This document shows positions 34,084 through 43,989 of a stretch of 64,000 bases of DNA, one piece after another. The stretch comes from Candidatus Micrarchaeota archaeon (lineage in GTDB: Archaea; Micrarchaeota; Micrarchaeia; Anstonellales; Bilamarchaeaceae). The notes beneath the pieces are model-generated. The model had not been told where the DNA came from. It worked only from the letters and a program-made list of their open reading frames with translations, and ran no database searches. Every line of letters begins with the position of its first letter. The stretch's first letter is position 1. The stretch spans positions 15,112-79,111 of the forward strand of contig JACRGD010000007.1 of the NCBI GenBank assembly GCA_016212525.1. Reading direction: 5' to 3'. The position numbers and the translations under genes are program-made.

Positions 34084-35082
34084 TCATAAATCCGATTTTT
34101 GATCAAAAAGAAGTTCCGCAACGACCGCCCTGTGATCTGAAGTAGGAGTCGGATCAACTTCATATCTTGCAAATTGAACCCCTGGACCTGCAAGGAATAT
34201 GTAATCTAAAGTTCGATTTGGTGCTACTGCCGGATAGGTATGAAATCCATCAAGAAGATCAGGGTTTGCATTGGCAGTTAGGTCAAATGGTGGAATAAAT
34301 AGTTTTTGTTCGATGATGTGCTGCATTGCAGGATCATGAGTATAGTCATCAGGATCGCCAGATAAATGACTGGGAAATGCCATTAGTCTTGAGGAGCGGG
34401 GTATCGCATTAAAGTCGCCGGCAATAACCATTGGCATATCAAAGCGTCTTAAAGCGCTTCGCACCTTTGTATGTAGTTTTTGTATCTGCCAGCCCCTGCC
34501 AAACGTATTTCCCCGAAGTTCAGGACCAAGATAGCGGATGATTTGATAAAATATGTCACTTAGGAGATGGGTACTATATACCCCAAAATCAGGACCGTCA
34601 GGAGGAGAGACCATTACAAAGGTAAAACCTTTGCATTCATTGAGCAATTTGACAAGATAATTCACCGGGAGATGAGGAGAAAAGGATTGACCAAAATCAT
34701 AACTGGTGTGTTCAGAAAGCGGATATTTAGAGATTACAACAGTACCAAGATCTCGCCCAAGCACAGTGTTTGAAACAAACGATTTCAACACACCTGGAAG
34801 CGGACTTCTTAGATGCGAAGACCCATGATAAAAACTAAAACCCAGACGATGAACAAGATATTCAAGTTGATTTATTCCTGCAGTCCTAAGAGAGAAAAAA
34901 TCAACCTCCTGCAGACACACAACCACTGCGCCCGAGGCAATAATTCTCTCGGCAATAACATCCAGATTTCGAAAAACTTGTTTTTTTGTTATCGGTTGAC
35001 GCAATTCTCCAAAAGGCCCATGAGCAGTATTGATGTTTTGAGAATATAGAATCACTCTGCAGGGCTCTTTGGCAAGTGCCAT
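34084..35082 (-). CDS. endonuclease/exonuclease/phosphatase (EEP) family protein
   Basis: NI, CLQEVD, GDFN, TYP, LDYIF, SDH. Confidence 0.9.
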   Translation of the reverse strand: MALAKEPCRVILYSQNINTAHGPFGELRQPITKKQVFRNLDVIAERIIASGAVVVCLQEVDFFSLRTAGINQLEYLVHRLGFSFYHGSSHLRSPLPGVLKSFVSNTVLGRDLGTVVISKYPLSEHTSYDFGQSFSPHLPVNYLVKLLNECKGFTFVMVSPPDGPDFGVYSTHLLSDIFYQIIRYLGPELRGNTFGRGWQIQKLHTKVRSALRRFDMPMVIAGDFNAIPRSSRLMAFPSHLSGDPDDYTHDPAMQHIIEQKLFIPPFDLTANANPDLLDGFHTYPAVAPNRTLDYIFLAGPGVQFARYEVDPTPTSDHRAVVAELLFDQKSDL

Positions 35083-35120
35083 AATAGATAAGTACAAAGA
35101 AGCTATAAAAGAAACGCAAA

Positions 35121-35148
35121 GTTACAAAGATATTTATAGTGGGAAAGA
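35121..35148 (+). promoter_or_regulatory. his cluster promoter 1 (BRE/TATA-like; 18-bp block shared with the hisF promoter)
   Basis: TATTTATAGTGGGAAAGA at 35131-35148, identical to 42510-42527. Confidence 0.75.
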
Positions 35149-35185
35149 CACAGACATTGTGTTAGTTAATGATTAGGTGAAAATA

Positions 35186-35484
35186 ATGGTGAACAAAAGA
35201 GGTATGGAAAGGGGTTTACTTCACCCCGATAAAGGAAAAGGATTTACTTCATCCGTCTGGATGCCAAAGCAAGACTAGTTTTACCGCTGTCAGTGCGGGA
35301 TCGATTAAACATCAAACCCAAAGACCAAATTTTACTTAGCGTTAGCAGTTTTTCGGATTCGGGGGATAAACAAACAATTACTTTAGTATTAGCGAAAGCC
35401 CCGGAAGATTTCCAGACTGAATCATATTCGTATTCGCGCAACGGGCGAGTTGTAGGAAAAAAATTTCGAGGTGGATTTGAATGA
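35186..35484 (+). CDS. AbrB/SpoVT-like DNA-binding protein, predicted to need two +1 frameshifts at CTT-CAY
   Basis: IRLDAKARLVLPLSVRDRLNIKPKDQI AbrB signature starts at 35251 in a frame closed upstream by TAA 35230; RBS AGGTGA + ATG 35186 is in another frame; stop overlaps the hisD ATG. Confidence 0.7.
35204..35252 (+). promoter_or_regulatory. two tandem putative +1 frameshift cassettes (SD-like, N3, CTT-CAY)
   Basis: ATG GAA AGG GGT TTA CTT CAC (35204-35224) and, in the +1 frame, AAG GAA AAG GAT TTA CTT CAT (35232-35252). Confidence 0.7.
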
Positions 35485-36839
35485 CTATTTTGAAAGTTCA
35501 GAGGTTAATTGATGCTGATTTATCTAAATTATTGGATCGCGGGACAACTAAGACAAATGTTATGCAGACAGTTCAATCGGTTTTTGAAGCGATTAAACTA
35601 CGTGGATTAACTGCAGCATTAGAATTTACAAAGCAGTTTGATGGAGTTACATTTAAATTTGCAAGTGAACTTTGCGTTTCAGATGCTTCGATAAAAGAGG
35701 CATATTCAAAATTGTCTAAAGAGCAAATAAGTGCAATTAAAGATTCGATAACCCGGGTTCGGGCATTTTGCATTGCTCAACTTCAAAATGTTCAAAACAC
35801 AAAACTCAAAACTGCAGAAGGTATCACTGAGCTTCGATGGCTTCCAATAGAGAGAGTCGGAATATATGCGCCAGCTGGCCGAGCTCCGCTTCCATCTTCA
35901 GTAATAATGGGTGCAATTACAGCTAAAGTTGCCGGAGTACGAAAACTGATCTTATGCGCTCCACCTCAAAAAGATGGGACTATAAATCCTGCAATTCTTG
36001 TTGCAGCTAATGAATGTGGAATAACTGAAATTTATAAAATTGGAGGAGCTCAAGCGATAGCTGCGATGACTTATGGATTATCAGCATCGAACATCGAGTT
36101 TCCGGCAGTGGATATGATTTGCGGGCCGGGAAACGCTTATGTTGCATACGCAAAGCAATACGCCGCATCTGAGGGGAGAGTAAAAATTGATACTATTGCA
36201 GGTCCGTCTGAAGTCTTAATTTTAGCAGATAAAACTGCAAACCCAAAACTCGTTGCAGCCGACATGCTTGCTCAAGCAGAGCACGGACCAACTTCGGCTG
36301 CAATATGCGTTTCGTGTTCAGAGAGTTTTTCCCAAAGTTTGGCAATCGAATTAGATCGCCAGCTTAACGCTTTTGGAGAAGGAGAAAAACAGGAACCCAT
36401 GCGAACTTCACTTAGAAATTGGGGTGCAATTTTGGTTGCTGAATCATTAGATCAGGCAATCGATTTTGTGAATGATTTTGCATCCGAGCACGTCGAACTT
36501 TATCTTGAAAATGCTGATAAAGTAGCCAATCGAATTACCTTTGCCGGAGCAATCTTTATAGGAACTGGAGAAGTCTTTGGCGATTATGGTATGGCTGGAG
36601 GAAATCACATTCTTCCAACTGGCAGATCTGCAAGATTTGCCTCTCCAGTTAGCGTGTATTCATTCCTGCGACAGCAACAAATCGAAAAGATGAATACCGA
36701 TGCACAAGCGCAACTTGCAGAAGCAACTGCTGATTTTGCCAGGGTTGAAACACTTGAAGCACATGCGCGCTCGGCTGAGGTTAGGGCTAGTGAATCTAAC
36801 ATTGCAAAAAATAATAATAATACAAAAGAGGAGGAGTAA
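35481..36839 (+). CDS. hisD: histidinol dehydrogenase
   Basis: GPGNAYV, AGPSE, QAEHG, SEH, GDY..G.NHILPT. Confidence 0.95.
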   Translation: MTILKVQRLIDADLSKLLDRGTTKTNVMQTVQSVFEAIKLRGLTAALEFTKQFDGVTFKFASELCVSDASIKEAYSKLSKEQISAIKDSITRVRAFCIAQLQNVQNTKLKTAEGITELRWLPIERVGIYAPAGRAPLPSSVIMGAITAKVAGVRKLILCAPPQKDGTINPAILVAANECGITEIYKIGGAQAIAAMTYGLSASNIEFPAVDMICGPGNAYVAYAKQYAASEGRVKIDTIAGPSEVLILADKTANPKLVAADMLAQAEHGPTSAAICVSCSESFSQSLAIELDRQLNAFGEGEKQEPMRTSLRNWGAILVAESLDQAIDFVNDFASEHVELYLENADKVANRITFAGAIFIGTGEVFGDYGMAGGNHILPTGRSARFASPVSVYSFLRQQQIEKMNTDAQAQLAEATADFARVETLEAHARSAEVRASESNIAKNNNNTKEEE

Positions 36840-36840
36840 A

Positions 36841-37893
36841 ATGACTGAAATTGATGTTTTAGTTCGAGATAGTATTAAACAAATAAAGGAATATTCAAGG
36901 CCGCCAATACTAGATACCGGAATAAAACTGAATCAAAATGAATCGCCTTATGGCTTACCTTTAGAAGTAGTTAGGGAATTTGAGAAAAGACTTGCAAAAC
37001 TTGCCTTCAATAGATATCCTGAAGGTTCATCTGAAAAACTACGAATTAAAATCGCAAGAAAATTCAAAACAAATCCAGATCAAATAGTAGTAGGTTGTGG
37101 AATCGATGAGATTCTTTATTATCTTTTGATGGCCTTTGTTGAAAAGGGAGACAAACTAGTAAGGCCGGTTCCAAGTTTTGGGATGTATCCAATTTGCGCT
37201 CAGGTTAGTGCTGCAAAAGATGTTCCAGTTCAACTTAGTGATAAATTTGATTTGACTGAAGAATTTGTAACCCAGAGCAAAGATGCCAAAATGACAATTA
37301 TTTGCAGTCCAAACAATCCAACCGGAAATTGTATGAATAAGAAACTAATTGAACGAATAATTCAGGGGACTTTGGGTTTAGTTGTAATAGATGAAGCATA
37401 TGCAGATTTTGCAGAATCAGATTGCATGGATTTTCTTAAATACGACAATGTGATTTTACTAAGGACTTTTTCTAAAGCAGGTTCATTTGCTTCCGGAAGA
37501 CTAGGATTTTCTGTTTCCAGTAAGAAAATTGCCGATTATATTAACCGAGTCAGACTTCCCTGGAACGTTAGTGCCATGGTTCAGGAACTAGGTGAATTGA
37601 TTTTGGATTATGAACCTCTTTTCCTTGAAAAAATTGAACAAATTAAAAAAGACCGGAATGTTTTGCTTTCAGAATTGAAAAAGATCGTAAAGACATATCC
37701 AACTGATTGTAATTTCTTTCTTTTTGAAGTGAAAGACCCTAAAAAAGTTTTTGAAAAACTGATTTCAGAAGGAGTTCTTACCCGAAATATAAGTGGAAAT
37801 TCTCCAAGACTAAAAAACTGCCTTAGAGTCTGTGTTGGAACCAGAGAAGAAAACGAAAAATTCCTTCGCGCACTTAAGAGGTGTTTGGAATGA
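36841..37893 (+). CDS. hisC: histidinol-phosphate aminotransferase
   Basis: NESPY, NRYP, SPNNPTG, DEAY, RTFSK. Confidence 0.95.
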   Translation: MTEIDVLVRDSIKQIKEYSRPPILDTGIKLNQNESPYGLPLEVVREFEKRLAKLAFNRYPEGSSEKLRIKIARKFKTNPDQIVVGCGIDEILYYLLMAFVEKGDKLVRPVPSFGMYPICAQVSAAKDVPVQLSDKFDLTEEFVTQSKDAKMTIICSPNNPTGNCMNKKLIERIIQGTLGLVVIDEAYADFAESDCMDFLKYDNVILLRTFSKAGSFASGRLGFSVSSKKIADYINRVRLPWNVSAMVQELGELILDYEPLFLEKIEQIKKDRNVLLSELKKIVKTYPTDCNFFLFEVKDPKKVFEKLISEGVLTRNISGNSPRLKNCLRVCVGTREENEKFLRALKRCLE

Positions 37894-38543
37894 AATTTGA
37901 TGCAATAATTTTTGATGTGGATGGAGTTTTAATTGATGTAAGTCAGTCGTACCGGATTGCAATAATCAGAACGGTCAAACAATTTAGTGGCAAGCAAATC
38001 AGCAATGCTGATATTGATTTGCTTAAGCAAACCCCTGGTTTCAATAATGACTGGGATGCGTCATTTGCACTAAACAAAGAAATAACTGACCCAAAACAGG
38101 TTGACCGTACTTCTGATGAATACAAAAAAATGAAGGACTATTTTCAAAGTCAATATTTAGGCGAACTTATCTTTAAAGAAAAATCCCTAATTGATTTAAA
38201 AACTCTTGAACTTCTTAGTTCAAAAGGTCTGAAAATGGGGGTTGCAACCAGCAGGCCAAGAGAGGAAGCTTTCATTGCGTTAAGAACTGCCGGAATCAGT
38301 CCAAAATACATCTTAGAAAGAAATGTTGTTGCACAGGAAGATGCGCCAGAAAAACCTTCTCCAGAACCACTTCTTTTAGCAAAGAAAAAAATCAATGCAA
38401 CAAATCCTGTTTATGTTGGGGATACTTCCAGTGACAAACTGGCAGCAGAGCGGGCAAAAATGCCCTTTATTTATTGTAAGAAAAATCCCCAGATTGAGCT
38501 GATGGAAATTGAGAATGTGAATCAATTAATTGATGTGATTTAA
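37890..38543 (+). CDS. HAD-superfamily phosphatase, probable histidinol-phosphate phosphatase
   Basis: FDVDGVL, KPSP, YVGD; ATGA-coupled to hisC and directly followed by hisB. Confidence 0.8.
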   Translation: MKFDAIIFDVDGVLIDVSQSYRIAIIRTVKQFSGKQISNADIDLLKQTPGFNNDWDASFALNKEITDPKQVDRTSDEYKKMKDYFQSQYLGELIFKEKSLIDLKTLELLSSKGLKMGVATSRPREEAFIALRTAGISPKYILERNVVAQEDAPEKPSPEPLLLAKKKINATNPVYVGDTSSDKLAAERAKMPFIYCKKNPQIELMEIENVNQLIDVI

Positions 38544-39203
38544 ATGGTAAATCGAACTGCAAAAATAACCCGGAAAACAAAGGAAACAGAAATAGAAGTC
38601 GAACTTAATTTAGATGGAAGCGGGAAAAGCGACATTAAAATCGGAGTTGGTTTTCTTGAGCACATGCTAACCTTATTTGCCGCACGAGGGATGTTTGACC
38701 TAAAAGTTTTCGCAAATGGCGATTTAGATGTCGATGATCACCACACAATCGAGGACATAGGAATCTGTATCGGTCAGGCATTTTCAGAGGCAATAGGAGA
38801 CAAGCGAGGCATACGCAGGTACGGGTTTTGGATTCTTCCGATGGACGAAACGCTTGCAACTATTGCACTTGATCTTAGCGGACGCAGTGCTTTGGTTTGG
38901 AACGTCCAGTTCGAACGCGAGAAAATTGGCGATATGAGTACAGAAATGCTCTATGACTTTTTCGACGCATTTTCACGTAATGCCCAGGTAAATTTACACA
39001 TGAAAATCGAGTATGGAAGAAACGAGCACCACAGAGCCGAAGCCCTCTTTAAGGGGTGGGGAATGGCAATGCGCATGGCTTGCGAGATTGATCCACGACA
39101 GATTGGAATTCCAAGCACAAAGGGAATTCTTAGCGAAAGTACCGACACAGCTAAGTCGAAAGTAGAGGTGAAAAACTATGATACGTTTAGCAATTCCAAA
39201 TAA
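38544..39203 (+). CDS. hisB: imidazoleglycerol-phosphate dehydratase (monofunctional)
   Basis: DDHHTIED, PMDE, NEHHRAEALFK, PSTKG. Confidence 0.96.
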   Translation: MVNRTAKITRKTKETEIEVELNLDGSGKSDIKIGVGFLEHMLTLFAARGMFDLKVFANGDLDVDDHHTIEDIGICIGQAFSEAIGDKRGIRRYGFWILPMDETLATIALDLSGRSALVWNVQFEREKIGDMSTEMLYDFFDAFSRNAQVNLHMKIEYGRNEHHRAEALFKGWGMAMRMACEIDPRQIGIPSTKGILSESTDTAKSKVEVKNYDTFSNSK

Positions 39204-40062
39204 AGGCCGCATTTCAACTGAAGTTTTGCGGCTTCTATCAAAAATCGGGCTTGAAGTCCCGGAAAACGGAAGAAAGCTTTATGCAAATACAAACAATCCT
39301 AACATTCAGATTGTTTATGCGCGTGCAGCAGATATTCCGTTTTTTGTCTCTGCAGGAGTAGCGGATGCCGGGATTACTGGAGAAGATATGATTTTGGAAA
39401 GCTCGGAGGAAGTAAGTGAAGAAAATGCAAAAAAATCGATAACGAAGTTACTACGATTGAATTTTGGAAAATGCAAAATCGTTGTCGCAGCGCCAAATAA
39501 TTCGAAGATAAATTCAACACAAGATTATCCAGCTAAAGTTCGGGTTGCAACCAAACTTACAAACATAACTTCGAGGTATTTTAGATCAAAGAAAATCAAT
39601 GCAAAAATCATCAGACTCTCAGGTGCAACTGAACTAGCCCCAGCACTTGGTATTGCTGATTTAATTGTAGATCAGGTTAGTACGGGAACAACTTTGGCAG
39701 CAAATAATCTAAAAATTGTCGATGAAATTTTCGAATCTGAGATCTATCTGTTTGCAAATAGCCGGTCTTTGAAAGAAAAAACCGAAGATCTGGATTCACT
39801 GAAGACCTCATTTGAAAGTGTAATTACTGCCGAATCCAAACGATATATCATGGTGAATGCTGATGGCGAAGATACTTTAGCACGAGTTACTGCCGTGATG
39901 CCTGCATTAGACAGTCCAACCATTCTTAAACTTGCAAAAGTCGGGTCTTATGCAGTTCACAGCGTCGTCGATGCCAATGAACTAATCGGCACCATTTGCA
40001 AGATAAAAAAGGCAGGCGGAACTGGAATTTTGGTCATGAACGCATCGCGCGTAGTCGAATGA
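39178..40062 (+). CDS. hisG: ATP phosphoribosyltransferase (long form)
   Basis: AIPNKGR, DAGITGED, GATELAP, DQVSTGTTL, C-terminal regulatory domain. Confidence 0.95.
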   Translation: MIRLAIPNKGRISTEVLRLLSKIGLEVPENGRKLYANTNNPNIQIVYARAADIPFFVSAGVADAGITGEDMILESSEEVSEENAKKSITKLLRLNFGKCKIVVAAPNNSKINSTQDYPAKVRVATKLTNITSRYFRSKKINAKIIRLSGATELAPALGIADLIVDQVSTGTTLAANNLKIVDEIFESEIYLFANSRSLKEKTEDLDSLKTSFESVITAESKRYIMVNADGEDTLARVTAVMPALDSPTILKLAKVGSYAVHSVVDANELIGTICKIKKAGGTGILVMNASRVVE

Positions 40063-40075
40063 TGAGGCTAAACCT

Positions 40076-40723
40076 ATGACTCAGATTACCATCATTGATT
40101 ATGGCGCAGGAAATGCAGTAAATGTGCAAAATGCCCTGCAAAAACTGGGTGCCAATTGCAAGATTAGCGCAAGCGAAACTGACTGGTTAAATGCAGATGG
40201 CATTATTTTTCCAGGAGTCGGTGCCTTTGGCCCGGCCATGCAAAATTTAGGGAAGCGTAGCCAAATTCTCAGAAGAATCATTAACGAATCTGATCGCCCG
40301 TTTCTTGGCATATGCCTTGGAATGCAACTTCTCCTTGAAAAAAGTGAGGAAAGCCCAAGTACAGAAGGCCTGGGGGTTTTGGAAGGGTCGGTTTTGCGTT
40401 TTGAATCCAATGCTTTGGGTTCTGAAACTAAATCTCTTCCAGTTCCACAAATTGCATGGAATGAGGTTAATGTAGTTAGTAACTCGGGTAAATGTTCTCC
40501 GCTTTTTGATGGTCTTGCAGATAGATTCTACGCGTATTTTGTTCACTCATATTACTGCAAAGTTAGTGATCGTTCATTAGTTGCTGCTACGGCTAAATAT
40601 GGAATTGAATTCGATTCTTCAATCTGGAAAAAGAATCTTTTTGCAACTCAGTTTCACCCTGAAAAAAGCGGAAACGATGGGTTAACGATATTGCAAAATT
40701 TCCTAGATGAGGTGAAATGCTAA
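40076..40723 (+). CDS. hisH: imidazole glycerol phosphate synthase glutaminase subunit
   Basis: DYGAGN, PGVG, GICLGMQ, FVHSY, QFHPEKS. Confidence 0.96.
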   Translation: MTQITIIDYGAGNAVNVQNALQKLGANCKISASETDWLNADGIIFPGVGAFGPAMQNLGKRSQILRRIINESDRPFLGICLGMQLLLEKSEESPSTEGLGVLEGSVLRFESNALGSETKSLPVPQIAWNEVNVVSNSGKCSPLFDGLADRFYAYFVHSYYCKVSDRSLVAATAKYGIEFDSSIWKKNLFATQFHPEKSGNDGLTILQNFLDEVKC

Positions 40724-41434
40724 ATGGTTATTGATAAATTTCAGGTTATTCCGGCAATCGACTTGATGGGTGGTCAATGCGTTCGATTGGTCAAGGGTGA
40801 AAAACAGAATAAAATCGAGTATGCGATTTCACCGTATGAAATGGCTAAGAGCTATCTTGAATATGGTGCAAAACTCATCCACATAGTTGATTTAGATGGC
40901 GCATTTACTGGTCAGATGACCAACCTTCCAATTATTTCAAAACTCGCAAGCGAATATCCAATCCAGGTCGGAGGTGGAATACGCAATGAAGAGCGAATTA
41001 GAGAATTGCTTTTGCTTGGAGTGAAAAGAGTAGTTGTGAGTTCGCTTCTACTAAAAAATCAGGAATTGGCAACTGAACTAAAAACCAAATACAAAGGAAA
41101 GCTCGTTGGCTCATTTGATTTTAAAAATGGCAGATTAGCTTATGCAGGTTGGACAAAAGAAAGTGAACTCAAATTTAACGAGGTCGTTGCAGGTTTAGAT
41201 GAAATTGTTGTGACTGACACCAATAAAGATGGAACGTTTGAAGGACCCAATCTCGAATTGCTTTCATCGCTTCGGGCGAGCTACCCGAACATCAAAATCA
41301 TCTCAGCTGGAGGAGTCAAAGATGAATCTGATCTTGCTGCCTTAGAAGGAATCGGAATTGATGGGGTTATCATAGGCAGAGGATTTTTCGAGAAGATGAT
41401 AAAACTGTCTGTTCTTGGAGGGTGTAAAAGATGA
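40724..41434 (+). CDS. hisA: ProFAR isomerase
   Basis: PAIDL..GQCVRL, HIVDLDGA, QVGGGIR. Confidence 0.94.
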   Translation: MVIDKFQVIPAIDLMGGQCVRLVKGEKQNKIEYAISPYEMAKSYLEYGAKLIHIVDLDGAFTGQMTNLPIISKLASEYPIQVGGGIRNEERIRELLLLGVKRVVVSSLLLKNQELATELKTKYKGKLVGSFDFKNGRLAYAGWTKESELKFNEVVAGLDEIVVTDTNKDGTFEGPNLELLSSLRASYPNIKIISAGGVKDESDLAALEGIGIDGVIIGRGFFEKMIKLSVLGGCKR

Positions 41435-41649
41435 CATGTTTGAATCGGATATCGATTCAAGAAAAGAGAGGGTAGAAGTTTAGTATCGAATACGGCAGCC
41501 AAAAATAGCAACGAAAACTGGTTAAATATCTGATTGAATTGGAATTAATTTTGACGCAAGGCCGTAAGTTGCACGAAGTATTTAAGCATCTGACACCAAC
41601 TGAACAAGCTATGCTTGAATTTCAAGCCAGGAATATTCTTTTATCTTGA
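41431..41649 (+). pseudogene. possible decayed gene coupled to hisA (two in-frame TAG)
   Basis: ATGA overlap with the hisA stop and GGAGGGTG RBS; TAG at 41473 and 41506, then open to TGA 41647. Confidence 0.3.
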
Positions 41650-42306
41650 AAATGGACTAATCGCATTCAATTGCCTTACAGCCAGCTCAAGATTGCCCGC
41701 TCCAAGTGCTGCTTGCGCGTTTGCAAAATGAGGTGAGCTTGCTATTGCAGATGCGGATACGTGATGGGTCCTAACTAAAAACGACTCACATAATTCACGT
41801 CGGTATTCTTCAGTATACCGCTCAGGATGTGCTAAAACACGTCTAGCTTCTGCATAAGCCATTTGGAAATAGAATCCATCAGCACCAGTTTCTCGTATGG
41901 GTTGAGGTATAGCTTGCTCAGGACTCGTGCTAAATGGTTGCTCCCTAAGGCGCGGTAATGCCGCATCTAGCCTAGATAAAATTGTCGTAAGCATTCGCCA
42001 AGCAGTTTGAACAGAACAATTCTCTGGTGGGGTTGGAGGCAGTCGCAATTGGGAGAGAGCAGTTAATTCTGCTGGACTCATTTGATCTCTATGATTATAC
42101 AAAATATCTCCAACCCTTCCCCTGGCTTCATTTATTGCATTTAATAAATCGTCTCGGACGTGAGGTGTGTTTGGTAGATTATATTTATATCGTTCGTATA
42201 TTTGTCTGGCAAAATTATACTTAACCATGACCTCTGCAGGCAAAAGCATTCGTTCCGAAGGCTGAAGCCTTGTGCTGTGCTCCTGAATTATTTGGAATAG
42301 AAACAT
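41641..42306 (-). CDS. hypothetical protein splitting the his cluster
   Basis: 221-aa ORF with GGTGA RBS on the opposite strand; no recognisable motif. Confidence 0.65.
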   Translation of the reverse strand: MFLFQIIQEHSTRLQPSERMLLPAEVMVKYNFARQIYERYKYNLPNTPHVRDDLLNAINEARGRVGDILYNHRDQMSPAELTALSQLRLPPTPPENCSVQTAWRMLTTILSRLDAALPRLREQPFSTSPEQAIPQPIRETGADGFYFQMAYAEARRVLAHPERYTEEYRRELCESFLVRTHHVSASAIASSPHFANAQAALGAGNLELAVRQLNAISPFSR

Positions 42307-42499
42307 GTCACCATTTATCGGTCATAGTTTAAATCATTTTGGCTCAAAAAAATAAATGACTTTTAACTACTGCATAAGTGCGTATCGCTTTGAGTAGGAA
42401 AGTTTCGCGTAGTTCCTAATATCAAGGAAGATCAAAAATGTATCGAGTGCTTAAAGTTGGAAATCGTGAAACCCGACACTCAGCTTAAGTTCTCTTCCG

Positions 42500-42527
42500 G
42501 TCACAAATTTATTTATAGTGGGAAAGA
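42500..42527 (+). promoter_or_regulatory. his cluster promoter 2 (copy of promoter 1)
   Basis: GTCACAAA-TT-TATTTATAGTGGGAAAGA vs GTTACAAA-GA-TATTTATAGTGGGAAAGA at 35121. Confidence 0.75.
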
Positions 42528-42553
42528 TAACTAATTATGTTAAGGTTGTAAAA

Positions 42554-43358
42554 ATGGAAAAGGATATACTTCACAAAAATTAGGACTTCTAAATCGCCAC
42601 TTTGTAAACGGATTATTCCCTGTCTTGATGTCAAAAACGGTCGGGTAGTTAAAGGCACTAATTTTGTTGGTCTTAAAGATGCCGGAGATCCGATCGAACT
42701 TGCAAGGAAATATTACGAAGACGGGGCAGACGAGCTGGTTTTTCTTGATATTACTGCTAGTAGTGAAGGTCGAAACACGGTAGTTGAACTAGCTAAAGCA
42801 GTTGCGCAGGAAGTCTTCATTCCGTTTACTATCGGTGGGGGCATTCGAACTATCAAAGATATTGAAGCGCTACTTAAGGCAGGAGCAGATAAAGTTTCCA
42901 TCAATACGGCCGCAATAGTTAATCCCAAACTGCTAACAGATGCGGCTTGTGAATTCGGAAATCAGGCCATCGTCATTGCAATCGATGCCAAACAAAACGA
43001 ATCAGGGAGTTGGAATGTTTACAAAATGGGCGGGTGCATTGACACTAACTTTAATGCCATGGAATGGGCAAAAAAGGCAGTTTCTCTAGGAGCCGGAGAA
43101 GTTCTTCTAACAAGCATGGATAGAGATGGAACTCAAAGTGGATTCGACATCGAGCTAACTCGTGCGATTGTTAAGGCTGTGAACGTTCCAGTTATTGCGT
43201 CAGGCGGTGGCGGAAAAGTCGATGACTTCATTAATGTTTTTCAAAAAACAAACGTTTCGGCAGCACTTGCAGCCGGAATTTTCCACTATGGAAAAATAAC
43301 AATTGGTGGCCTAAAAAAAGAATTAAAATTAGCGGGAGTTGATATTCGTGAAATCTGA
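42554..43358 (+). CDS. hisF: imidazole glycerol phosphate synthase cyclase subunit, predicted to need one +1 frameshift at CTT-CAC (42569-42574)
   Basis: Intact [19 protein letters not shown]...[10 protein letters not shown]...GGGIR frame from 42600 has no ATG/GTG/TTG between TAA 42549 and ATG 43026; ATG 42554 opens MEKDILHKN* in the adjacent frame. Confidence 0.9.
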
Positions 43359-43989
43359 AAACAATAATTTTGACAAAGACATTCAAAAGGATAAAAGTAG
43401 GGTCGATCAAATCAAGTTCGATAACGATGGATTAGTTCCAATTATAGTTCAGGATGCAAATACAGGAGTAGTGCTCTCACTCGTCTATGCCAATTCGGAT
43501 GCAGTCTGCCGGATGCAGGAAACTGGTTTTGTCTGGCGCTATAGTCGCTCGAAGAAAAAAATAATGCAAAAAGGAGAAGAAAGCGGGAACGTTCAGAGGA
43601 TCGTTTCAATCGATTTAGACTGTGACAAAGATGCTCTGCTAGTTCGAGTATTACCTGAAGGACCTGCATGCCACCTGAGTACGGTTTCATGTTTTGGATC
43701 TGAAGAGGTAGCAGATATGCTTTCTGAACTTGCACTCATAATAAAAGACCGAAGACAAAATCAAGACTCAAATCAAAATTCATACACCGCAAAGGTAGTT
43801 TCAAATCGGGAGCTCGCAATCGAAAAGCTACGTGAAGAATGCGAGGAATTGATCGAAGCTAAAGAAAAGAAGGATCTGATCTGGGAGGCGGCTGATCTTC
43901 TCTACTTTACGCTAGTTTATTTTGAGAATCGCGAGGTTGAATTTGGGGATGTCTTGAAGGAACTAAGACGAAGACGTCTAAGTCACTAA
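43348..43989 (+). CDS. hisIE: bifunctional PR-AMP cyclohydrolase / PR-ATP pyrophosphatase
   Basis: GLVP.IVQD, SRS, KGEESGN, DCDKD, PACH...SCF; SYT, K..EE, EAADLLY. Confidence 0.94.

Follow-up and report, generated by a model that had tools for sequence, protein, structure and literature searches.

This locus raises the question of how the AbrB-like gene lying directly upstream of hisD in a Candidatus Micrarchaeota genome is translated, as its reading frame differs from that of the start codon preceding it. The whole stretch of DNA analyzed, hereafter the window (64,000 nucleotides, 41.7% GC), is part of a 1.47-Mb genome. A ribosome-binding site (RBS), AGGTGA (35175-35180, + strand), is complementary to the 3' tail GAUCACCUCC of the 16S rRNA of this genome (gene at G000:C8 ~62626-64100, - strand). 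It precedes an ATG at 35186, from which an unshifted leader product of 30 amino acids, ORF0, is read up to a TAG at 35276 (35186-35278, + strand). This leader harbors cassette 1 (35210-35224, + strand), with a Shine-Dalgarno (SD)-like AGGGGT, the E-site codon TTA, the P-site codon CTT at 35219, and the A-site His codon CAC at 35222. A +1 shift at CTT-CAC (35219-35224) opens a frame that joins both cassettes (35220-35339, + strand); a ribosome that misses the second shift would stop at TAG 35337. Cassette 2 (35238-35252, + strand) consists of the SD-like AAGGAT, TTA in the E site, CTT at 35247 as P-site codon, and the His codon CAT at 35250 in the A site. A second +1 shift at this CTT-CAT (35247-35252) enters an AbrB/SpoVT-like trans-frame ORF without His codons (35248-35484, + strand), the TGA of which overlaps the hisD ATG (ATGA, 35481-35484). 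Both sites have the same layout, a purine hexamer followed by one codon, by CTT, and by a His codon (AGGGGT TTA CTT CAC and AAGGAT TTA CTT CAT), with predicted anti-SD duplexes of -5.8 kcal/mol for cassette 1 and -2.6 kcal/mol for cassette 2. The doubly shifted product would have 12+9+77 = 98 codons, none of them His.

This arrangement was described in the initial annotation, and all of its coordinates hold after re-checking, including those of TAA 35230 upstream and of GTG 35293 as the only in-frame GTG; the segment lengths also bear out the 98-residue product without His and its overlap with hisD. A -1 slip at G GGT TTA, the sole X XXY YYZ heptamer in ORF0, was rightly rejected there as the source of the frame: the heptamer lies upstream of TAA 35230, where such a slip ends.

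The AbrB-like gene is followed by his operon 1 (35481-41434, + strand), in which hisD, hisC, a HAD phosphatase gene, hisB, hisG, hisH, and hisA all have ordinary starts. The first three were assigned by Pfam, and hisB, hisG, hisH, and hisA from sequence and homology to orthologous loci. A 221-aa ORF without a Pfam match (41641-42306, - strand) lies between hisA and a separate hisF-hisIE unit, which presents the same problem of frame. There, a leader ORF (42554-42583, + strand; ATG 42554, TAG 42581) carries a single cassette, AAGGAT ATA CTT CAC, with CTT at 42569, and hisF is found in the +1 frame (42570-43358, + strand), where it matches positions 2-254 of the TIGR00735 profile with 347 bits, above the cutoff. 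The hisF frame contains no ATG, GTG, or TTG before codon 158 (43026), and translation of the full enzyme thus requires either a shift or a non-standard start. Standard gene calling places the hisF start at 43026, and 158 codons are thereby lost. The end of hisF is overlapped by hisIE (43339-43989, + strand), named from sequence and homology.

Homolog and cassette searches covered Micrarchaeota. Of 61 relatives, 20 contain AbrB-like homologs, as do 76 of 401 class-level and 78 of 401 phylum-level genomes, the 401-genome counts including an ACT-fused paralog; 30 GTDB loci and 27 metagenome loci were further retrieved. The 30 named GTDB loci, by which the window is assigned to Micrarchaeota, comprise 27 from Micrarchaeota/Micrarchaeia, two from Burarchaeum and Bilamarchaeaceae, which we take to belong to Micrarchaeota, and one from an 'uncultured archaeon'. 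When two cassettes were sought in orthologs, as the initial annotation had proposed, a frame-blind listing of 90 distinct loci revealed 45 His-His pairs. All 45 are offset by 3n+1 nt, with spacers of 16-88 nt, and in each of them a +1 shift at cassette 1 gives the frame of cassette 2 and a +1 shift at cassette 2 gives the AbrB frame. A path parser run on 100 distinct non-ACT loci returned 46 two-shift, 32 one-shift, and 5 zero-shift paths; most of the 17 unparsed loci were read by eye as variants or as having one cassette and a weak RBS. The claim of two serial +1 shifts therefore stands as a conserved route into the AbrB-like frame but not as a general rule, since many orthologs have one cassette. 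Because 32 of the 100 loci have a single shift, placing two cassettes in series would be a lineage-level tuning. In four loci (L004, L035, L042, and L059), cassette 1 is decayed or bypassed, and the start is then in frame with cassette 2. An RBS-led in-frame start is also available in 12/100 loci, mostly as a GTG or TTG inside the SD tract, which counts against a shift. It should be noted that these loci are kin, so that the counts overstate their independence.

The trans-frame protein is under purifying selection. The median dN/dS of the AbrB frame was 0.30 (362 usable pairs, 41 sequences) and decreased to 0.17 over the first 30 columns, with all pairs below 1. No His is encoded downstream of the cassette in 95/100 loci, versus 11/21 ACT-type paralogs (first 65 residues). 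In the window itself, a 46.6x contig, possibly from the source sample, covers 34900-43400 with zero differences, and a contig from a second sample of the same study is identical over 35003-35658. Judged by its sequence, the gene is real, conserved, and functional. Viral contigs gave 31 pattern matches, none of which was confirmed.

The signal itself was described from 189 cassettes, of which 180 are distinct. CTT occupies the P site in 171 and GTT in 18, and the next base is always C or T; CTT makes up 31.5% of the Leu codons in this genome. The A-site codon is CAT in 95, CAC in 83, and TGG in 11 of the cassettes, a set that was partly chosen by motif, so that the codon-blind scan and cassette 1 are the cleaner tests. 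Matches at L023/L025 and L032, one match at L134, and the automatic parses of L013 cassette 1 and of L086 were dropped before counting; the KaiC-like L023/L025 look, by eye, like ordinary genes whose start was missed by the RBS pattern. The codon-blind scan, which sought short ORFs that follow an RBS, contain NTT, and open into a long +1 frame, yielded 119 candidates, 88 with CTT or GTT; these 88 have CAY in 66 cases, TGG in 5, CAA in 1, and scattered codons in 16. Cassette 1, which shows no sign of a protein constraint, has CAC (23) or CAT (21) as its A-site codon, and Gln codons are found in 0/44. In the ORFs of the genome as a whole, a His codon comes after CTT 170 times and a Gln codon 239 times.

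The upstream tract encodes R, G, K, S, E, W, or Q, yet its GG is kept, and with seven residues encoded, the element is a nucleotide-level one. Its pairing with the 16S tail amounts to -5.9 kcal/mol, versus -1.8 kcal/mol for background CTT codons. Three nucleotides separate the purine tract from CTT, and the class-wide best ungapped anti-SD register ends at -3, 2 nt before the P-site codon. The same spacing is the minimum for ordinary initiation in this genome and is unlike the compressed one of prfB, which counts against a shift; cassette 1 of the window pairs in a near-prfB register. A tRNA-Leu(GAG) is encoded in this genome, many tRNA genes of which have predicted introns. Some leaders start with GTG and keep the His codon behind a P-site GGC or GCC (L086, L092, L098, and L102). 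Such GGC/GCC-CAC variants, like the CAA/CGG-AGA ones, re-pair poorly in +1, which also counts against a shift.

The A-site codon follows the pathway of the gene that carries it. His-codon cassettes at his genes number 11 at hisD, 10 at hisG, 2 at hisIE, and 1 at hisF, that is, 24 CAY and 0 TGG; 12 further his-gene candidates with non-His, non-Trp codons were left out of the 24 and read as ordinary-start overlaps. Inside trpB2, the codon-blind scan found 4 TGG and 0 CAY. An independent search detected trpB2 in 65/401 genomes, and among the best 30 loci, 7 have an RBS-led Trp cassette and 0 a His cassette. Four of these 7 are located inside the 5' end of the gene, and 3 are in short leaders with a +1 product terminating at the trpB2 start or close to it, which suggests ribosome delivery without a regulator protein. 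Trp cassettes within trpB2 or in short leaders near its start were seen at L162, L165, L166, and L177 and at L161, L163, L167, and L178, and W-L/V-W sites without a GG tract were found by eye in three more loci (L154, L155, and L167). In L157, L159, L160, L164, and L172, the frame of an HTH-type gene upstream of trpB2 switches close to a Trp codon, where the motif is another one (CGC/AGC/CAG-TGG), and some of these genes have an alternative GTG or ATG start. No cassette was found at argH in the best 30 loci; a CTT-TTC match at L244, which has its own ATG, was taken as noise.

Among AbrB-led loci, his, hisS, or hutH lies downstream in 50 of the 90 His types and trpB2 in none of them, whereas the six Trp types comprise three with trpB2, one with hisS, and two with neither. 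Counting against this correspondence, 40/90 His-type loci show no His gene in the available DNA, 20 of them on less than 3 kb, and two mismatches were found, a Trp cassette before hisS (L108) and an Ile-type cassette before AsnRS (L275). Cassettes also occur on radical SAM and unknown proteins, often in operons ending in hisS. Proteins of 218-467 aa without a Pfam or NCBIfam match carry His cassettes in L022, L037, L039, L049, and others, and those of L037, L039, and L049 lie between the AbrB-like gene and hisS. In L059 (1400-3840), CTT-TGG is present both in the AbrB leader and in the next radical SAM gene, with an EgtD/EasF-like methyltransferase (below cutoffs) downstream. The A-site codon is probably a swappable specifier, for His, for Trp, and probably for other amino acids. 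In a FastTree phylogeny of the short AbrB domain (67 selected sequences, low support), the ACT types stand apart (0.91) and the Trp types fall in five places, which hints at repeated codon swaps.

We consider it likely that the AbrB-like gene and hisF are controlled by a programmed, hungry-codon +1 frameshift that senses charged tRNA. The RBS-led ATG sets the ribosome in the frame that reads CUU and then CAY. With abundant His-tRNA, CAY would be decoded and the ribosome would stop within a few codons. With scarce His-tRNA, the A site would wait, and the peptidyl-tRNA-Leu(GAG) could re-pair from CUU to UUC, a slip that the 16S anti-SD duplex just upstream would aid. Sense codons placed at the RF2 site were reportedly shown by Curran and Yarus to shift in proportion to slow tRNA selection. 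Where two cassettes are present, the output would be the product of two shift probabilities, giving low leak and a steeper response. In a simple competition model, two sites square the fold induction; with a basal shift of 10% and charged tRNA lowered tenfold, this amounts to 28-fold instead of 5-fold, as a matter of arithmetic only. The product, being His-free, could be completed under histidine starvation, and the AbrB-like gene and hisF would be translated mainly when histidine is limiting.

Several other explanations of these frames deserve weighing. The cassettes might shift constitutively at a set ratio and just hold expression low, His being a slow codon without regulatory meaning. His codons are indeed fairly rare (6467 of 374585 codons), some cassettes lie on genes with no known His link, and the neighbors of L108 and L275 do not match; nevertheless, the codon tracks the pathway at his genes and trpB2, the two His codons both occur but no Gln codon does, and the product lacks His in nearly all loci, all of which makes this explanation improbable. 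We judge equally improbable that there is no frameshift and that a ribosome stalled at the leader His, or an internal SD, drives (re-)initiation at a downstream ATT, ATG, GTG, or CTG. The SD spacing is initiation-like, the 12/100 loci with a zero-shift start candidate would fit, GGTGAA-type cassettes spell an in-frame GTG, and an ATG in the shifted frame, counting against a shift, is present in 9/77 last cassettes. Still, the candidate start triplet varies (ATT, GTT, ATG, GTG, AAT, ATC, AGT, and others), a TAG directly precedes the shifted codon in 8/77 last cassettes, and internal initiation leaves the strict NTT-Y and the serial 3n+1 spacing unexplained. The starts at ATT 35242 or CTG 35257, which the initial annotation had named as a competing origin of the protein, are not conserved, ATT being found in 32/77 last cassettes.

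[quoted passage not shown] Slighter still is the chance that the cassette is an RNA hairpin, or the DNA site of a regulator, with the broken frames incidental. Each of the two window cassettes can fold as a small stem, the 7-nt loop being identical in both, and positions -5/+5 are associated (Fisher p 5e-4, among kin that are not independent), but the outer pairs of cassette 1 are not kept (16% at -6/+6, 5% at -7/+7, and 5% at -8/+8), so that a conserved hairpin was rejected, and the reading-frame rule would be left unexplained. The least credible explanation is an error or decay: the genome is metagenome-assembled and the AbrB family scores are below cutoff, and the initial annotation had considered that orthologs might be single-frame genes and this copy a degraded pseudogene. 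The conserved shifts and the purifying selection contradict this idea. Because of the 3n+1 spacing, the dN/dS of 0.30, and the matching contigs, and with hisF needing the same shift and the pattern recurring across independent assemblies, the gene is neither a pseudogene nor an assembly error.

Under the sensing frameshift that we favor, the nature of the output has to be considered. The HMM check proposed in the initial annotation did return AbrB-type matches, all of them below curated cutoffs (Pfam MazE_antitoxin, E 0.009; TIGR01439, E 3e-4). A family profile compared with PDB sequences matched AbrB, Abh, and SpoVT best (E 2e-4 to 4e-3), and several homologs are annotated as AbrB by NCBI or JGI. 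An AlphaFold2 monomer model has a pLDDT of 88, and the first 12 listed Foldseek matches (ranks 1-13) belong to the AbrB superfamily, with TM scores of 0.28-0.46 and none reaching E 0.001. The apparent likeness to AbrB/SpoVT/MazE and to AbrB-ACT proteins (PRK08577-like) resides in the putative N-terminal DNA-binding motif; the cassette-type proteins differ in that they would need a shift. Their subfamily has no ACT domain and ends with a C-terminal S-[KR]-N motif. Other his operons of Micrarchaeota are headed by AbrB-ACT paralogs whose starts are ordinary, and the first enzyme gene of these operons often carries a cassette. One reading is that a ligand-binding ACT domain was replaced by a ribosomal sensor, with a tree too weak to give the order of events. 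A scan of 41 neighbors detected no toxin family, and the next gene is hisD here and is annotated elsewhere as his, hisS, hutH, trpB2, or radical SAM; a MazE/PrlF antitoxin of a toxin-antitoxin pair was rejected, no toxin gene being adjacent.

An 18-bp block shared by two promoters, noted in the initial annotation, was recovered at 35131 and 42510. This block, TATTTATAGTGGGAAAGA, is the only blastn repeat of the leader genome-wide (E 0.004). The first copy, TTTATAGTGGGAAA (35131-35148, + strand), overlaps the TATA element and is a candidate operator of the AbrB-like protein; the second (42510-42527, + strand) heads the hisF-hisIE unit. The block is found upstream of 95/100 cassette-type AbrB loci (doubled in 19), of 4/21 AbrB-ACT loci, and of 0/28 trpB2 loci without AbrB. 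Most likely, the AbrB-like product binds this TATA-overlapping block at both his promoters, although this is the weakest step of the scheme, together with the proposal that ribosomes finishing the AbrB-like ORF would re-initiate on hisD at the ATGA overlap. The AbrB stop lies within -40 to +10 nt of the next RBS-led start in 76/98 loci (mode -4), which makes translational coupling to the next gene plausible; hisD also has an RBS of its own. In 6 loci (L103, L111, L112, L114, L117, and L125), a His-type AbrB gene directly precedes hutH (above the TIGR01225 cutoff). Coupling as the output would induce hutH at the wrong time, and a repressor function of the AbrB-like protein would fit these loci.

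The closest known relative of this signal is that of prfB. Published passages describe +1 shifting as favored by a hungry A-site codon, a slippery P-site codon, and an upstream SD (PMC2377451), and give the prfB consensus as CTT_TGA_C with an upstream SD (PMC3711429) located 3 nt from the shift site (PMC5009743). The cassettes share with prfB a short zero-frame leader, an SD-like tract, one codon, CUU, a slow pyrimidine-initial A-site triplet, and a protein in the +1 frame. They differ in that the A-site codon is a sense codon (His or Trp) and the sensor would be charged tRNA and not a release factor, and in being archaeal, used twice in series, and present on many unrelated genes, with a class-wide SD register that is less compressed. 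The cassette would work like prfB but is not a member of its type, because the defining UGA stop is absent from the A site. That peptidyl-tRNA-Leu slips from CUU during the wait at the A site is reported for E. coli hungry codons and for yeast Ty1/ABP140, at CUU_AGG_C, in sections of PMC5009743 and PMC2377451. The slip is alike in these systems; theirs are errors or set-ratio shifts at rare tRNAs. Antizyme of ornithine decarboxylase, in the account excerpted from PMC8211752, uses a +1 shift as metabolite sensor and effector, but it senses polyamines at a stop codon, is eukaryotic, and has no SD or specifier codon.

Leader-peptide attenuation at his and trp operons reads the charging of the pathway's own tRNA through leader codons. 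The specificity of T-boxes is likewise set by a specifier codon, according to a passage of PMC2494555. Leader codons report pathway tRNA charging in both and in the cassettes; here the output would be a reading frame and not RNA structure or termination, with one codon per sensor. Features of leader-peptide attenuation are lacking, as each leader has a single His codon in place of a run of regulatory codons and as no conserved stem or terminator was found.

In the archaea, the relevant section of a 2021 review lists the Saccharolobus fucA1 -1 shift at A-AAA-AAT as the only cellular case and gives +1 shifting only for a haloarchaeal virus (PMC8211752); fucA1 resembles the present genes as a programmed frameshift in an archaeal chromosomal gene and differs in being -1. 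The genome table of the GeneTack paper, in the part cited, includes only Cren-, Eury-, Kor-, and Thaumarchaeota. The corresponding section of a 2016 review states that there is no known hungry-codon shifting that makes starvation-specific functional proteins (PMC5009743). If our reading is true, these loci would be a natural example of what that section said to have none, and they would place a +1 programmed shift in archaeal chromosomal genes, absent from the list in the 2021 section (PMC8211752). They would also imply anti-SD pairing during archaeal elongation. We found no published description of this amino-acid-sensing frameshift in full-text searches that covered few subscription journals; amino-acid sensing by a specifier-codon frameshift would be not described before. 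It offers an answer to how amino-acid pathways are regulated in small archaea and explains a mis-annotation, as gene callers assign invented N-termini to shifted proteins and truncate hisF here. The 15-nt cassette with its swappable codon could become a compact amino-acid biosensor.

A broader proposal, to which we give only slightly better than even chances, is that Micrarchaeota use a modular translational code for amino-acid sensing. It would combine a slippery codon anchored by an SD (NTT if a pyrimidine follows, NAA if a purine follows) with a specifier codon for His, Trp, Leu, Phe, Tyr, Ile, Val, Thr, and perhaps Arg, carried by enzymes, by synthetases, and by no fewer than two families of regulators. 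Cassettes in series would act as AND, with a squared response, and cassettes sharing a frame would act as an OR between two amino acids. L042 (Trp and His) and L129 (His and Tyr) each have, in one frame, a pair of cassettes that differ in their amino acid. Such a code would stand beside attenuation and T-boxes as a third general solution. AbrB leaders with CAA-AGA or CGG-AGA (Arg) are present in L110, L118, and L119, with an in-frame GTG or TTG start as an alternative; L110 precedes argH and a carbamoyltransferase gene.

The second regulator family consists of small HTH genes and was found from another candidate in this genome (G000:C8:66060-66372; L214/L245). HTH homologs (L246-L257 and L261-L289) show an apparent need for +1, with site codons for Leu, Phe, Ile, Val, Tyr, or Thr. 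The scaffold was recognized by eye in 12/15 loci (3 without alignment), a figure not counted against a null, often with two sites in the same frame. The site types are CTT-TTG (Leu), CTT-TTC (Phe), GAA-ATC (Ile), and GAA-GTA (Val), and Leu and Ile sites are often in one frame, for which OR logic is possible. In L289 (G132:C128), an HTH leader with two CAA-ACN (Thr) sites lies directly before the gene for threonyl-tRNA synthetase.
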